Source of the DNA: Promethearchaeota archaeon
GTDB taxonomy: Archaea > Asgardarchaeota > Lokiarchaeia > Sigyniarchaeales > SOKP01
DNA: 11,952 nt
Assembly: GCA_048940645.1 (NCBI GenBank)
Contig: JBHLOI010000083.1
Location: 1-11,952 of the forward strand
Direction of reading: 5' to 3'
The number at the start of each line of letters is the position of its first letter. Position 1 is the stretch's first letter. A model generated the notes under the pieces. The model saw nothing but the letters and a program-made list of their open reading frames with translations. It had not been told where the DNA came from and made no database searches. Position numbers and translations under genes: made by a program. Of the stretch, positions 70-5,119 are shown one piece after another.

Positions 70-1587
70 TTAGAGGTTTAAAGTCTGTCCATCTTTTAGA
101 AGAATAGCATTTTCAAACTTTTCTCCAAACCATTGAGGATTCTCTGTATGCACTGGAATTATAACATCTGGATCAATTCTTTCAATTGCCCATCTAATTT
201 CACTCTGAGATAAATGTCCAGAAGCGTGAAAACCTCTGACAAAATCTGGTTTTAACTTTCCATTTTGTTCAATTATTTCAAAACCATGGATTTCAAATCC
301 AAAGTGTTTAAGCCAGTTATTTAATCTTATAAAATCAAACTCTGATTCTTCTTCAAATGCTTCACTCGAGGAATAAATATAAGTACCCTTTACGGGTTTA
401 ATATCAAGCAGATTCTTTACATCAAAGAACGAGAAACATAATAGGTACTGTTCAGGATTTTTGGATATCTCCAGAGGATCAATTAAATTAATGTCCCTCT
501 CATTTTTGAGAAGATAATGTTCCCATCCTTTTGGTCTTACTTTTAACATCTTATATATTAACATATCTTTTGTTCTATTTAATCCATCAACTTTCTCAAG
601 TGCTTTAAGCAAATAGGCATCTTTTGTTGTAATAATTAATTTTCTCCCTACTTTTTTAGCTATCTCTTGAAAGGTTTCAAGTCTTTCAAAATTTCTTGCG
701 GTAAAATCAGCAATTACTAAGTCTTTAGACATCTCAACGAGCTTAAGGCAATTTTGATGAATAATTTCTTCGGGTTCATTAAAATCTTTCTTTATAGCTC
801 TTGTTCCTTCAATTATTAAAACCGAAGCGCTTTTTGCATTTTTTATGAAGTTATTACTGAATTCTGATTTCTTGCCATGAAGTCGAAAATCACCCGAATA
901 GGCAACGGTATTTTCTCCACTAATTATATATGCAGTAGCACCGTATATTGAATGGTCTACTTCAAAGGCTTTAATTTTAAAAGGTGTTGAAAATTCTTTC
1001 AATACGCACAAATCTCCTTTTTCAAATTCCTTTTTTGTAAAACGAATTGATAAAAAATCATCTAAAGTAAGTGGAAAATCACTTGTACTGAAAAATTCTC
1101 TACAATAAACAGTTTTTTTATCAGTTTTTAGAATTCTATCGTCCTCTGCTCTGATTTTTTTAGTAAAGTAAGCAACTTCATTATTCAAGGTAGCTATTGA
1201 ACAATCACGTATAGCTTTTAACAACACTATACTAGTTGGTGACGCGACAATGGGTATTTTTTCATCAAGTAAAGAAATATTTCCAAAATGATCCATGTGG
1301 GAATGACTTAATAAAACAGCATCAATATTTAATGATGGAAAACTGGAAATGTCTAAATCAGAAGGAATTAAATCTCTTCTATAATTCTTCAATTTAGGAA
1401 TTAACTTTAGTTGAATAAGGTCGTAAATGCCTCGTGAATAACGTTCTTGTAAATATTGTTGAAAATAGTCCCGATACTTTTTAAAATTCATTCCAAAATC
1501 GAGAAATAGTCCATGATTTTGCTCATGTAAATATATTTTATTTCCGCCAATAGTTTTAGTTCCATCATATACGGTAATTGATGTCAT
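70..1587 (-). CDS. Metallo-beta-lactamase-fold beta-CASP ribonuclease (RNase J-like)
   Basis: 505-aa ORF with MBL/beta-CASP motifs in the expected order: IGGN, LDFG, HSHMDH (HxHxDH), VDHS, YSGDFR, IIEGT, HASGH, IPVH. The subfamily cannot be fixed without a search. Confidence 0.88.
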   Translation of the reverse strand: MTSITVYDGTKTIGGNKIYLHEQNHGLFLDFGMNFKKYRDYFQQYLQERYSRGIYDLIQLKLIPKLKNYRRDLIPSDLDISSFPSLNIDAVLLSHSHMDHFGNISLLDEKIPIVASPTSIVLLKAIRDCSIATLNNEVAYFTKKIRAEDDRILKTDKKTVYCREFFSTSDFPLTLDDFLSIRFTKKEFEKGDLCVLKEFSTPFKIKAFEVDHSIYGATAYIISGENTVAYSGDFRLHGKKSEFSNNFIKNAKSASVLIIEGTRAIKKDFNEPEEIIHQNCLKLVEMSKDLVIADFTARNFERLETFQEIAKKVGRKLIITTKDAYLLKALEKVDGLNRTKDMLIYKMLKVRPKGWEHYLLKNERDINLIDPLEISKNPEQYLLCFSFFDVKNLLDIKPVKGTYIYSSSEAFEEESEFDFIRLNNWLKHFGFEIHGFEIIEQNGKLKPDFVRGFHASGHLSQSEIRWAIERIDPDVIIPVHTENPQWFGEKFENAILLKDGQTLNL

Positions 1588-1736: not shown

Positions 1737-2189
1737 ATGATGTTTTCAAATATGGAAGACTATGAAAGACGGATCAACGAACTGACTAGGCAAATTTCAG
1801 AATTACAGAATCAAGTTTATCAGTTAAAGACATTAATTAGTGAAAAAGATAATCAGATCAATCAATTATATAACGAAAATCAGCAAGCGAAAGCTCAAAT
1901 ACAGAGTCTTCAGCAACAGGCAAGTCAATCTCCTTATTATAACCAACAACCATTACAAGAACCAACACAACAACAATCAGCACAAATTCCGGTTGTTGAT
2001 CAAACAGCAAAATCTATCATAACTTCTAGTAATGAAACAATTACTCTTAATAAAAGAGAATGCCCCAAATGTGGAGCCTTTGGATTTGCTATTAAGGAAG
2101 TTGAAGATAAGTCTCGGTTACTTAGTTATATTCCTCGGAGGATTTATGCTAAAAAGCATGTTTGCACTAAATGTTTTTATGAGTGGTAA
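1737..2189 (+). CDS. Hypothetical protein: N-terminal coiled coil, Q-rich linker, C-terminal Cys4 zinc ribbon
   Basis: Heptad-like L/I pattern at about aa 8-60 (YERRINELTRQISELQNQVYQLKTLISEKDNQINQL), then a Gln-rich segment, then CPKC-x30-CTKC-FYEW*. Alternative ATGs at 1740 and 1752. Confidence 0.85.
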   Translation: MMFSNMEDYERRINELTRQISELQNQVYQLKTLISEKDNQINQLYNENQQAKAQIQSLQQQASQSPYYNQQPLQEPTQQQSAQIPVVDQTAKSIITSSNETITLNKRECPKCGAFGFAIKEVEDKSRLLSYIPRRIYAKKHVCTKCFYEW

Positions 2190-2318
2190 ATTATTCTATA
2201 TATAGAAAAAGTTTGTAATTAGCGGTTATAAACCTCTTCATTTGCTCAGATCGCGTTTGCTTATTATATTTTCTATTACTTAGTCTTCTATTTAATGTAA
2301 TAATCTTAGTTCTATTTC

Positions 2319-2325
2319 TTAAATA
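2319..2325 (+). promoter_or_regulatory. Candidate TATA box for the csp gene
   Basis: TTAAATA lies about 85 nt upstream of the csp ATG and about 33 nt upstream of a hairpin. The AT-rich background makes this weak. Confidence 0.3.
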
Positions 2326-2357
2326 TTTATTTGGAATGGTTACTTTTTACTTATTTG

Positions 2358-2384
2358 TGAGTACATTAATCAAGTATGTACTCA
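2358..2384 (+). promoter_or_regulatory. Perfect 9-bp inverted repeat upstream of csp (5'-UTR hairpin or operator)
   Basis: TGAGTACAT (2358-2366), 9-nt spacer, ATGTACTCA (2376-2384); ends 22 nt before the ATG at 2407. Confidence 0.6.
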
Positions 2385-2406
2385 ATTTGTTCATTAGGTT
2401 TTTTCA

Positions 2407-2658
2407 ATGGTAAAAGGAACAGTAAAATGGTTTGACCGCCGTAAAGGCTATGGTTTTATTACTCGAGACGATGGAAAAGCTGATGTATTTGTACATTATT
2501 CAGCTATTGAAGGTGAAGATGAATTTAAAGCCATCTATGAGGGTGATAAAGTAGAATTTGATATAACTGAAGGATCTAAAGGTCCTCAAGCGAGTAATTT
2601 AAAAATTACAGAAAAAGCGCCTCGACCGAGTTTTAAACCCCAAAGAAAGCGTTATTAA
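2407..2658 (+). CDS. cspA: Cold-shock domain protein (CspA family) with a basic C-terminal tail
   Basis: KGTVKWF, RNP1 KGYGFI, RNP2 VFVHYS, EGDKVEF and KGPQA are canonical CSD motifs. Extra tail [15 protein letters not shown]. Confidence 0.95.
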
Positions 2659-2748
2659 TTAGATCTAATTAATAAAGTAAGAGTAAAAACAAAAGGAATT
2701 TTCAGAAAAGGTAAAATGGTTTCTTACAACTTTTTTATGATTTACTGA

Positions 2749-2790
2749 TTTTTCCATCTTTTTTTTATTATTTTTTTTTATCTTTTTTCT
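2749..2790 (+). terminator. Oligo-T tract, candidate archaeal-type intrinsic terminator for csp
   Basis: Several consecutive T runs (TTTTTCCATCTTTTTTTTATTATTTTTTTTTATCTTTTTTCT) about 90 nt after the csp stop. Confidence 0.45.
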
Positions 2791-2973
2791 CGATAAAAAT
2801 AAAGTCAAAATGAGTTTACCTTCAATTTGACTTAAAAGTTAATATGAAGTTCACTATTTTAAACTACTTAAGGAACTATTCTTAGATTTTAATGAAGATT
2901 TAATAAAAATTTAAAATAAAAAACTAATAAACTTCCTTATTAATAAACATAAGAGTAAAAAGTGGTAAAGAGT

Positions 2974-3777
2974 TTAGAGAAGTCCATCAATCTCTTTGAG
3001 TGTACGAGGGGCAGAACGGTAAAATTTTATGGCAGGATATCCAATAATAAATACTCCAACCCTCTTTCCATTTATATTAGCCAACTTTTTTATGTTAGGG
3101 TTACTATTCATTGCTATTTGAGTCCATCCATTCCAACATGTACCTAAACCTAGCGATTGAGCTGCTAAGCGTCCATATGTAACGATAATTCCAATATTAT
3201 TCATTTCTACCTCATGAGTATAAGGAGAACTTACAAAAATAACATGAGGGGCATCAAAATAAATAGGGCTGCGGAAAACTTTACCTAAAAGATAAAAAAG
3301 TTTCCCATATTGTTCATTCATATATTCATCTTTTAACAACTCTTCAATTACAGCATCATTCAGTCTTTTTATCTGATCAGGATCTGAGAGAATAGAAAAG
3401 GTTTCTGATCTTGCATTGTCACCTGTAGGAGCGTGACTCATAGCAGCAAATACTGAGCGTAAGAGCTCATTAGGTACTTTCTTTTTTCTAAAACGCCTGA
3501 TTGAACGATGTGCGCGCATAAAATTATAAAGAGAATCGTAGGATAGAATGGTATCTGGTTTGCCCACACCCTCAAATTCGGACGCTTCTCCCATATTTTC
3601 ATATAAAATCGCATTTTCAGGGCACTCTGCTACGCATCGTCCGCATAAATTGCAAAAATTCTGTGGATCCTTATAATCAATCTTTTTTGTTTCTTGGTTA
3701 TATCTGAATAATATACAAGTTTGTGAGCAGATCTTACAATTATTACATTTTTGGTAATCAATTCCTATAATTGACAT
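2974..3777 (-). CDS. Nitroreductase family protein with N-terminal 2x[4Fe-4S] ferredoxin domain
   Basis: CNNCKICSQTC and CNLCGRCVAECP ferredoxin motifs, followed by nitroreductase motifs HRSIRRF, APTGDN and AAQSLGLGTCW. Confidence 0.92.
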   Translation of the reverse strand: MSIIGIDYQKCNNCKICSQTCILFRYNQETKKIDYKDPQNFCNLCGRCVAECPENAILYENMGEASEFEGVGKPDTILSYDSLYNFMRAHRSIRRFRKKKVPNELLRSVFAAMSHAPTGDNARSETFSILSDPDQIKRLNDAVIEELLKDEYMNEQYGKLFYLLGKVFRSPIYFDAPHVIFVSSPYTHEVEMNNIGIIVTYGRLAAQSLGLGTCWNGWTQIAMNSNPNIKKLANINGKRVGVFIIGYPAIKFYRSAPRTLKEIDGLL

Positions 3778-3895
3778 AATTATTTTTTATTTTAAACATA
3801 AATGCAATAGTTAAGAGAAGAAATAATTATTAAAATAATATGTTTTTTATTTGAAAGGTTTCTAGTAAAATAATAATAGCTAATTTAATTATGTT

Positions 3896-5119
3896 CTATC
3901 TCCATTGAGCAGCACATTGTCCACATTGATATTTCTTGGCATAAATCTTTGGATAAGCATAAATTAACCGTGTTTTATCATCTATTTCTCTAATTTGTGC
4001 TTTATTGTTATTTCCGCACTTTGGGCATTGCCACTTACGTATAACTTCTCCTTCTTCTGATTCTCCTATTTCACCTGATTTCAAAATAAGGTCAGGAGTA
4101 TCATCAATTTTAGTAGATATTATTTCACTTTCCTTCTCAAATTCTTTCAGGTTCTGCTGCTCCATTTCGAATACGTTTACTTCATGGGCAGTTTCGGAGA
4201 TTTTTATTGATTTAGTAATCTTAGGTTTTAGTATTTGTTCTTCTTTTTTATCATGAAGTTGCAGCGCTGTAATTGTTTTTGCCAATAAAATTGAATCTTT
4301 TTCTCGAAGTTCTTGATTTTTTTTCTGTAAATCTTCAATTTGCCGATTTAAATCTGATATTTTAGATTCATACTTGAACATTTTGAGCTTTTCTCTCTTT
4401 AACGCATCTAATTTTTCGGTTAAATTTCGATTTTCCTCTTCTAGTTCAGAATTATTCTTTTTTAAAGTATCAACAATCCGGTCCAAACTTTCTGTAGAAT
4501 CTTTTTTAGTTCTTAACGTTTCTAAATCTTCCTTAAGTAATTTATTTGTATTCTCAAGTCTTGATATTTTTTGTTCAAGGCTAAAAACCTCATTTTTTAA
4601 TTCTTCATTGATAGGGCTTTCAGATTTTACTCCTGTTAAGGCTTGAGTACTTTGTTCAATTTCTTCTTCTAGCTTAAAAAGTCGATTCTTTAATGATTTA
4701 TTCTCATTTTCTAATTTTCCATAATCTTGAATTAGAGTATTTAAGGAATTTTGAGTTCGTGATAACATCTCATCTTTAATTGTATCAGATAAATTTTCTT
4801 TTACTTCATCTAATTCCAGAGTCAAATCTTCTACTTTATTTTGTAATTGCTCCTTTTCATCATTTTTTTGCTCCAATTTTTGGGTAAGGGTTGAAATCAT
4901 GTCCTTCAAAATTTTAATCTCTTCTGATTCACTTCGTTCCTCAATATGCTTAACAGGTTCAATTTTCAATGAGGCTTTTTGAGCTTCAAGTTTATTTTTT
5001 AACTTAGTAACTTCAAACTTTAATTTTTCAATTGTTTTTTCCAAATACGCTCTGGATTGTTGTTCTTCTTCAGCCTCATCAATCAAATCTTTTAAATCTC
5101 TACTCATTGCATTCCTCAC
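3896..5119 (-). CDS. Hypothetical long coiled-coil protein with C-terminal Cys4 zinc ribbon
   Basis: About 280 aa of E/K/L-rich heptad sequence, an acidic linker, then CPKC-x30-CGQC-AAQWR*. The start may be the ATG at 5107 (MSRDL) rather than the GTG at 5119. Confidence 0.87.
   Translation of the reverse strand: MRNAMSRDLKDLIDEAEEEQQSRAYLEKTIEKLKFEVTKLKNKLEAQKASLKIEPVKHIEERSESEEIKILKDMISTLTQKLEQKNDEKEQLQNKVEDLTLELDEVKENLSDTIKDEMLSRTQNSLNTLIQDYGKLENENKSLKNRLFKLEEEIEQSTQALTGVKSESPINEELKNEVFSLEQKISRLENTNKLLKEDLETLRTKKDSTESLDRIVDTLKKNNSELEEENRNLTEKLDALKREKLKMFKYESKISDLNRQIEDLQKKNQELREKDSILLAKTITALQLHDKKEEQILKPKITKSIKISETAHEVNVFEMEQQNLKEFEKESEIISTKIDDTPDLILKSGEIGESEEGEVIRKWQCPKCGNNNKAQIREIDDKTRLIYAYPKIYAKKYQCGQCAAQWR

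Follow-up and report, generated by a model that had tools for sequence, protein, structure and literature searches.

The closest described counterpart of the elements treated here is the "Zn domain" named by Akil et al. in 2022 in a Lokiarchaeota two-domain gelsolin, Loki2DGel (KKK44901.1) (PMC9433394). The domain was described as exclusively C-terminal and as present on gelsolins as well as on unrelated proteins, small free proteins consisting solely of the Zn domain were reported, and homologues beyond Loki were not consistently found (PMC9433394). Its structure was modelled, with none determined experimentally, and no function was assigned; the authors proposed that it probably binds some cellular feature or complex (PMC9433394). 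No later paper characterizing the domain was found in the literature. Here we describe two further hosts of this module, the proteins P0001 and P0002. Both are encoded in the window, meaning the whole stretch of DNA that was analysed, which is a complete contig (C34) of 11,952 bp from the 3.8-Mb assembly (30% G+C) of a Lokiarchaeial (Asgard) archaeon. An earlier note on this DNA had taken the two for dissimilar coiled-coil proteins that carry one undescribed C-terminal zinc-ribbon module and form a candidate system, and had held that a likeness to eukaryotic adaptors would be notable if the host were an Asgard archaeon, which it is.

Identity of the C-terminal module

No Pfam or NCBIfam family scored above its cutoff for either tail. 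Searched against the PDB sequences, a profile built from 148 modules, with the P0001 tail as its first sequence, matches residues 283–333 (of 335) of 7WHG chain G, the Lokiarchaeota 2DGel, with an E value of 7.4e-21, and on the strength of this sequence match the tail of P0001 and P0002 is the Zn domain of Loki2DGel/MKD1-2DGel. A profile built from the two tails alone finds the gelsolin tail of the same genome at an E value of 4.3e-15. The published domain and the tails described here belong to the same sequence family and lineage, and share the (CxxC)2 frame, the extended hairpin with a conserved tyrosine and the extreme C-terminal position after a linker. They differ in that the hosts in the window are coiled-coil rods rather than gelsolins, and in that the module of P0001 sits in the other of the two clades described below. 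The module is therefore not undescribed, as the earlier note had it, but already in the literature and functionally uncharacterized, and the docking idea put forward in that note is essentially the hypothesis of Akil et al. New relative to the 2022 paper are the census of copies, the Asgard-wide free form, the two clades and the exclusion of a TFS reading of the ribbon.

P0001 and P0002 share a tail on dissimilar rods

Both open reading frames are present as the earlier note described them. The two CxxC pairs are 30 residues apart in P0001 and P0002 alike (direct count), and the tails have in common CPKCG, D-K-[ST]-R-L, a proline, I-Y-A-K-K and a terminal tryptophan (direct count); four to five residues follow the last CxxC, ending in W in P0001 and in WR in P0002. 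Comparison of the whole proteins by BLASTP gives an E value of 1e-12 with nearly all of the score coming from the tails, which are 50% identical, a similarity far above chance. Without the Zn module, the rods (~60 and ~290 residues) give a marginal 26-residue BLASTP match with an E value of 0.002, which was reached by 1 of 200 shuffles, and a profile-profile comparison of the rod orthologues returned a probability of 23% in a register different from that of the BLASTP match. The rods thus count as dissimilar, as the earlier note had supposed, and homology between them, considered on account of the marginal BLASTP value, was rejected when the profile comparison gave no confirmation.

P0001 has three candidate start positions (1737, 1740 or 1752), its orthologues beginning with MMF, MF or MEDY. 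These orthologues, from other Asgard metagenome-assembled genomes (MAGs), are 145–154 residues long, with tails 96–100% identical by BLASTP. The coiled-coil-like stretch at its N-terminus spans 47 residues by a heptad heuristic and about 47–60 residues overall, with sub-threshold Pfam matches to ZapB (residues 1–60) and NET2A (residues 11–97). For P0002 the true start is probably, judging by its relatives, the ATG at 5107, giving a protein of 403 residues, rather than the GTG at 5119, which lies four codons upstream, since the orthologues begin with MSKDLKDL. Met-5 is invariant in the alignment of 12 orthologous sequences, and the orthologues in two other assemblies are 403 (L016) and 406 (L017) residues long. 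In the AlphaFold2 model of P0002, computed with the 12 orthologues, the rod consists of helices 2–48, 66–165 and 168–293, and the ribbon forms a β-hairpin at residues 376–399. The end of the rod carries the motif KDSILLAKTITA (residues 274–285; window 4262–4297, minus strand), which is kept in most P0002 orthologues (proteins 43–84% identical) and is absent from P0001. This motif may be a second interaction site particular to the P0002 paralogue.

Sequence, charge, and fold of the module

The module follows the pattern [RK]-R-x-C-P-x-C-G-[NA]-x3-5-I-[RKH]-E-x2-D-K-[TS]-x-[IVL]-[IL]-S-x-[YI]-P-x1-3-[IM]-Y-[GA]-K-K-x2-C-x2-C-G-x-E-[WF]. Across the 148 modules three of the cysteine columns are invariant and the fourth is 99% conserved, and high conservation extends to Asp-24 (100%), Tyr-37 (99%), Lys-39 (97%), Pro-10 (93%) and Lys-40 (91%). 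The module is strongly basic, with a median net charge of +6 and a median isoelectric point (pI) of 9.4. The 40 residues preceding it are, family-wide, made up of 67.5% disorder-promoting residues compared with a background of 50%. In the AlphaFold2 model of the module, with a predicted local distance difference test (pLDDT) score of 83, a long β-hairpin is formed by strands at positions 19–30 and 36–43.

The shapes nearest to this model in the Atlas, with template modelling (TM) scores of 0.70–0.84, are all Asgard coiled-coil or gelsolin proteins, and the Atlas feature search returned the protein's own Asgard cluster as its sole result. Foldseek against the PDB and a wide VIA-align search gave generic zinc ribbons only, with E values of at least 1 and Z scores of at most 3.7; the closest solved folds, all weak, are the ribbons of NrdR, TFIIS, TFS4, Rpb9 and Rpp21. 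Two sets of matches among the PDB sequences were discarded. Those to the C2H2 fingers of PRDM9 (E 1.6e-12) are spurious sums of partial matches, in which K-x-Y-x-C-x2-C-G is set against the C2H2 linker and knuckle and single stretches have independent E values of at least 0.4, and those to rubredoxin cover single knuckles only. A complex prediction with two modules and two zinc ions, run without controls, scored 0.00 and counts neither for nor against self-association.

Relation to other zinc modules

A candidate origin of the module that looked promising was the C-terminal ribbon of TFS, TFIIS and RpoM. Both are three-stranded ribbons with CPxCG...CxxC knuckles and a terminal W-R-E, and hhalign against 19 TFS/RpoM ribbons gave a probability of 93% with an E value of 2.7e-7. 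This candidate failed its control, as permutation of the hairpin columns left the hhalign score at 32.0 ± 4.4 compared with 32.4 for the unpermuted alignment, so that the sequence similarity is restricted to the knuckles. A genome-wide search with PF01096 recovered the genome's own two TFS/RpoM genes and nothing else, missing all nine module copies. The tail of P0002 reaches 19.1 bits, where the cutoff is 21, and for the tail of P0001, which has nine Pfam families listed at E values up to 1, PF01096 is absent from the list. The structural matches are weak (Z 2.8–3.3), the spacer is 30 residues long rather than 24, and the hairpin carries a basic Y-[GA]-K-K where TFS has the acidic R-S-A-D-E. 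Taking together the permutation control, the negative PF01096 search, the spacer and the replaced acidic motif, the relation to TFS is one of the zinc-ribbon frame only.

The RanBP2/NZF family (PF00641) matches the first knuckle alone, with 20.3 bits where 27 would be needed, and the second CxxC follows only after 30 residues, where the spacing W-x-C-x2-4-C-x3-N-x6-C-x2-C would be expected. For the tails no Pfam match to FYVE was obtained at E values up to 1; the EEA1-type FYVE domain has eight cysteines, two zinc ions and the basic R(R/K)HHCR motif that binds phosphatidylinositol 3-phosphate, compared with the four cysteines of the module. The analogy with eukaryotic coiled-coil proteins that end in a zinc finger, drawn in the earlier note, stands for the architecture, as EEA1-FYVE and NEMO-UBZ likewise consist of a rod, a flexible linker and a terminal zinc module, but does not extend to sequence or fold: the module has four cysteines and one predicted zinc ion, which is not the FYVE or UBZ pattern. 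The zinc hook of Rad50 has just one CxxC, placed at the tip of an antiparallel coiled coil, and shares its zinc between two chains, whereas the two CxxC pairs of the module belong to the same chain, follow the rod and a disordered linker, and are predicted to form an intramolecular ribbon.

The villin headpiece is comparable by analogy, being small, autonomous, exclusively C-terminal, placed after gelsolin repeats and a linker, and also found on unrelated cytoskeletal proteins. Its fold is unrelated, all-helical and zinc-free, and it binds F-actin, whereas the Loki Zn domain did not bind rabbit F-actin (PMC9433394). Among archaeal proteins, the free forms of the module (48–66 residues) are of the CPxCG type, like the HVO_2753-type micro-proteins (PF07754). 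The Pfam scores are 15.9–19.8 bits, well short of the cutoff of 33.2, and the family differs from the HVO_2753 type in having one ribbon with a 30-residue hairpin and in that all named sources are Asgard.

Copy number, hosts, and phyletic spread

The two-tail profile finds seven further copies in the source genome (E 5e-18 to 5.5e-4), making nine in total (Table 1). A word-indexed search returned 1,224 proteins of more than 100 residues that carry the module at E values of 1e-3 or below. Their named sources are all Asgard MAGs, under the labels Promethearchaeota, Lokiarchaeota and similar; the Asgard-only statement rests on these named sources, as the representative library carries no taxonomy. 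The matches of an exhaustive search fall into 527 clusters when grouped at 50% identity, and 306 of these reach E values of 1e-10 or below. In 262 of the 267 proteins retrieved, no more than 10 residues separate the end of the module from the C-terminus, and 10 proteins carry a second copy; a two-module subfamily makes up the main exceptions to the single C-terminal module. In P0127, P0149, P0154, P0156, P0186 and P0201 (484–586 residues) an internal and a terminal module lie ~80–125 residues apart.

The N-termini are varied, comprising coiled coils, gelsolin, Ras/Roc GTPase, TPR and unclassified domains, or are missing altogether. The Pfam matches of 147 representatives are chiefly to coiled-coil families, with single cases of Ras/Roc, TPR and Gelsolin, and by a crude heptad heuristic 39% of the N-terminal parts contain a coiled-coil-like stretch of at least 35 residues, compared with 8% of background open reading frames. 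The expectation of the earlier note, namely a portable, multi-copy, lineage-restricted and C-terminal module on varied N-termini, is borne out by this census.

In a scan of 400 genomes of the phylum, all genomes of the window's order (families f1–f4) had 3–16 copies each, with 1–3 in other orders of its class and 0–1 in other Asgard classes. By family, the module was present in f1–f7, f9, f11–f14, f18, f20, f21 and f26–f29 and absent from f16, f19, f24 and f25. In other classes many families show exactly one weaker match and some show none (e.g. 0 of 22 and 0 of 19 genomes). Where these classes have one copy, it is a free protein of 48–66 residues, in one case with a Pro/Glu-rich tail, and named relatives come from Jord-, Heimdall-, Frey-, Borr-, Odin-, Thor-, Hod-, Hermod- and Lokiarchaeota MAGs. 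Given this pattern, with multiple copies in the order and single free copies elsewhere, the module appears to go back to a free zinc micro-protein present Asgard-wide, and it appears to be only in the Lokiarchaeial order that it multiplied and was grafted onto C-termini.

Two clades of modules

A tree of 39 modules, taken from six genomes, and four outgroup mini-proteins is weakly resolved but divides into two clades (support 81/93). The gelsolin tails, the majority of free mini-proteins and the P0002 tail belong to clade I; the P0001 tail, two other coiled-coil types and the outgroup mini-proteins belong to clade II. The tail of P0001 groups with 154-residue orthologues of another genus (support 96/88), and module subtypes in general retain their N-terminal partner across families. 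The paralogues are therefore old and stable, and P0001 and P0002 are not recent duplicates.

Each gelsolin tail is 62–79% identical to the free mini-protein of its own genome, compared with only 49–60% for gelsolin tails of the other family. On the sequences available this likeness indicates gene conversion or co-evolution, the latter being what a common partner that itself evolves would bring about. Of five closed or near-closed genomes belonging to the order, four have a gene for gelsolin with the Zn module 0.2–4.3 kb from a gene for a free mini-protein (Table 1), and the gelsolin fusion was perhaps born by capture of a neighbouring mini-gene.

Gene neighbourhoods

P0001 and P0002 are encoded on different strands. 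The 1.7 kb between their genes contain a cold-shock gene and a nitroreductase/ferredoxin gene, and the genes flanking the pair encode a metallo-β-lactamase-fold hydrolase, a 4Fe-4S protein and a regulator of the Lrp/AsnC type. The cold-shock gene follows P0001 by 218 bp on the same strand, as it does in two other assemblies. On the other side, P0001 is adjoined by the gene for a 505-residue protein in which no β-CASP or RMMBL match was found, again also in both assemblies that share the window's gene order. The P0001/P0002 order recurs in these two assemblies (L016 and L017), which are probably close relatives; five closed or near-closed genomes from other genera did not show the pair. As the neighbours are unrelated housekeeping genes and the pairing was seen only in assemblies with the same order, the two genes form no gene system, contrary to what had been suspected.

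In one further genome (G189), a P0001-type gene occurs twice in near-identical form, at L033:1501-1968(-) and L038:1177-1644(+), and the duplicated segment also holds genes for a methyltransferase and a small membrane protein. At L038 the P0001-type gene lacks an adjacent cold-shock gene and is accompanied by homologues of the 4Fe-4S and Lrp/AsnC genes found next to P0002 in the window; at L033 it is accompanied by a shorter homologue of the 4Fe-4S gene. The same genome has divergent neighbours at L023:173-1018(-) and L023:1192-1668(+), a pair composed of a gene for a 158-residue coiled-coil protein with a clade I module and a 281-residue gene product whose N-terminus looks gelsolin-like by eye. 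This pair would be a further genomic link between the Zn module and gelsolin.

Table 1. Features of the window, further module copies in the same genome, and module loci in other genomes
Feature	Location	Strand	Length (residues)	Description
505-residue protein	70-1587	-	505	weak N-terminal metallo-β-lactamase match
P0001 gene	1737..2189	+	150	coiled coil, Q/P-rich linker, Zn module
P0001 coiled-coil segment	1752..1922	+		~residues 6-62; sub-threshold Pfam matches, heptad heuristic
P0001 linker	1923..2051	+		residues 63-105; low-complexity Q/P/S/T; sequence inspection
P0001 Zn module	2052..2186	+		residues 106-150; K-R-x-CPKCG, 30 residues, CTKC-FYEW; clade II
Cold-shock-domain protein, bacterial type	2407-2658	+		PF00313, E 3e-28
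P0002 gene	3896..5119	-	407	counted from GTG 5119
P0002 Zn module	3899..4039	-		residues 361-407; R-K-W-Q-CPKCG, 30 residues, CGQC-AAQWR; clade I
P0002 linker	4040..4240	-		residues 294-360; acidic, low confidence; pLDDT <50 over 290-359 (AlphaFold2)
P0002 helical rod	4241..5116	-		residues 2-293; AlphaFold2 with 12 orthologues
Further copy, same genome			337	two Gelsolin repeats (PF00626, E 7e-27)
Further copy, same genome			292	coiled-coil protein
Further copy, same genome			279	polyproline tract, coiled coil, Zn module
Further copy, same genome			171	N-terminus unassigned
Further copy, same genome			108	
Further copies, same genome			57 and 64	two free mini-proteins
Free mini-protein, other class	L011:1483-1653	+		
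Free mini-protein, other class	L012:1462-1662	+		
Free mini-protein, other class	L013:1471-1782	+		
Free mini-protein, other class	L014:1498-1644	-		
Free mini-protein, other class	L015:1459-1650	+		
Gelsolin-Zn/mini-gene pair	G135 C1:4004430-4004917			
Gelsolin-Zn/mini-gene pair	G138 C1:4779104-4783753			
Gelsolin-Zn/mini-gene pair	G143 C1:1209508-1212233			
Gelsolin-Zn/mini-gene pair	G149 C4:17778-18344			
Gelsolin-Zn/mini-gene loci	L018, L029, L021, L030, L020, L025, L022, L031			

Proposed role of the module

We consider it moderately probable that the ribbon acts as a docking or address tag that binds a single common target, probably acidic and specific to Asgard archaea, and that the rods display it multivalently. 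The Zn domain is an Asgard-specific basic ribbon of ~47 residues, predicted to fold independently, with one zinc ion predicted to be held by the four cysteines and a long β-hairpin carrying the near-invariant D-K-[ST], proline and Y-[GA]-K-K. In the window's order this ribbon appears to have been grafted, via flexible acidic or low-complexity linkers, onto the extreme C-termini of about eight different proteins per genome. The rods of P0001 and P0002 probably oligomerize in parallel, which would place two or more ribbons at one end. Binding of the conserved hairpin face to the shared target would then gather rods, gelsolin, a small GTPase and other cargo at one place, where the rods could serve as spacers, tethers or cross-linkers, and the free mini-proteins, as the ancestral form, would be potential competitors. 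The identity of the module, its spread, C-terminal placement, architecture, charge and conservation are shown by the data above; docking as such, one target for all copies, and a target within the actin or cell-cortex machinery are what we infer. The docking reading draws on the basic ribbon with its conserved hairpin face, the flexible linkers, the strictly C-terminal position, the many unrelated hosts, the free versions and the Asgard-only distribution. In addition, the green fluorescent protein (GFP)-tagged tail was diffuse in human cells (PMC9433394), which suggests that its target is absent there. A bolder version is rather doubtful, in which the ancestral mini-protein binds one conserved hub and the Lokiarchaeial fusions are all recruited to a single cytoskeletal or cortical organizing site, with the free mini-protein as competitor or regulator.

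Several observations weigh against a shared docking target. No binding partner of the Zn domain was identified in this analysis or in the literature, and no conserved candidate partner gene was found among the neighbours in the window or those of the free mini-proteins of four Asgard classes. The Zn domain of Loki2DGel showed neither co-sedimentation with rabbit F-actin nor bundling of it (PMC9433394). The main text of a Lokiactin co-immunoprecipitation study lists gelsolins, profilins, an ARF GTPase and BAR proteins, and coiled-coil/Zn-domain proteins go unmentioned in that main text (PMC13716822). A basic zinc ribbon is equally compatible with nucleic acid or lipid binding, and the two clades could have different targets.

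Among the other explanations, attachment to membranes is unlikely. The basic, aromatic-tipped hairpin would anchor the rods and gelsolin to anionic archaeal lipids in the manner of EEA1. The net charge of +6, the conserved tyrosine and proline at or near the hairpin tip beside the two lysines, and the position of the module at the end of a flexible linker are consistent with such an anchor, and partners such as gelsolin, Ras/Roc GTPase and coiled coils are typical of the cortex and of trafficking. The diffuse distribution of the tagged tail in human cells argues against it, though archaeal lipids differ, as does the lack of FYVE features and of a Pfam FYVE match noted above.

A nucleic acid-binding role, in which a ribbon derived from TFS/RpoM would bind RNA or DNA and P0001 and P0002 would belong to RNA or chromosome metabolism, we likewise regard as improbable. 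The high pI and net charge would suit it, the knuckle frame, terminal W-R-E and hhalign probability recall TFS/RpoM, the nearest solved folds are ribbons of the nucleic acid machinery, all weak (Z below 4 and Foldseek E at least 1), and the gene after P0001 on the same strand encodes a cold-shock domain. The hhalign score, however, comes wholly from the knuckles, the R-S-A-D-E hairpin, the 24-residue spacer and PF01096 matches are all missing from the module copies, and the adjacency of the cold-shock gene is lost in G189. Fusions to gelsolin and a small GTPase are hard to reconcile with this role, and the tagged tail was not concentrated in human nuclei (PMC9433394).

Direct binding to the side of the Lokiactin filament, as by the villin headpiece, with dimeric rods acting as bundlers or cross-linkers, is also improbable. 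It would account for the placement of the module after gelsolin domains and a linker, for the pairing of a basic module with acidic actin and for the occurrence of Zn-module genes beside gelsolin genes in several genomes. Against it are the lack of rabbit F-actin association and bundling by the Loki2DGel Zn domain, the main text of the co-immunoprecipitation study, which names no coiled-coil or Zn-domain proteins as enriched, and the single free mini-protein in most other Asgard classes, which comes with no actin clue. That modules bind each other, homo- or heterotypically, in a network capped by the free mini-proteins is very improbable: long exposed β-hairpins can pair, ten proteins carry two modules and the gelsolin tail co-varies with the free mini-protein of its own genome, but most other Asgard classes possess just a single free copy, without a second partner, and oligomerization of 2DGel via its tail is unreported in the published work (PMC9433394).

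The shared docking tag thus remains the reading that we favour. In Lokiarchaeia a single small module joins calcium-regulated gelsolin to coiled-coil rods, a GTPase and other proteins, which makes it a concrete handle for study, and P0001, with its 150 residues, is a compact and highly conserved bait for a partner search. If the ribbon is indeed an Asgard-wide address tag, it would be a prokaryotic equivalent of eukaryotic targeting modules that sit at the C-terminus, the villin headpiece and FYVE among them. Knowing its target would show where the carrier proteins meet in the cell, and whether Lokiarchaeia built modular targeting like that of eukaryotic cytoskeletal adaptors.

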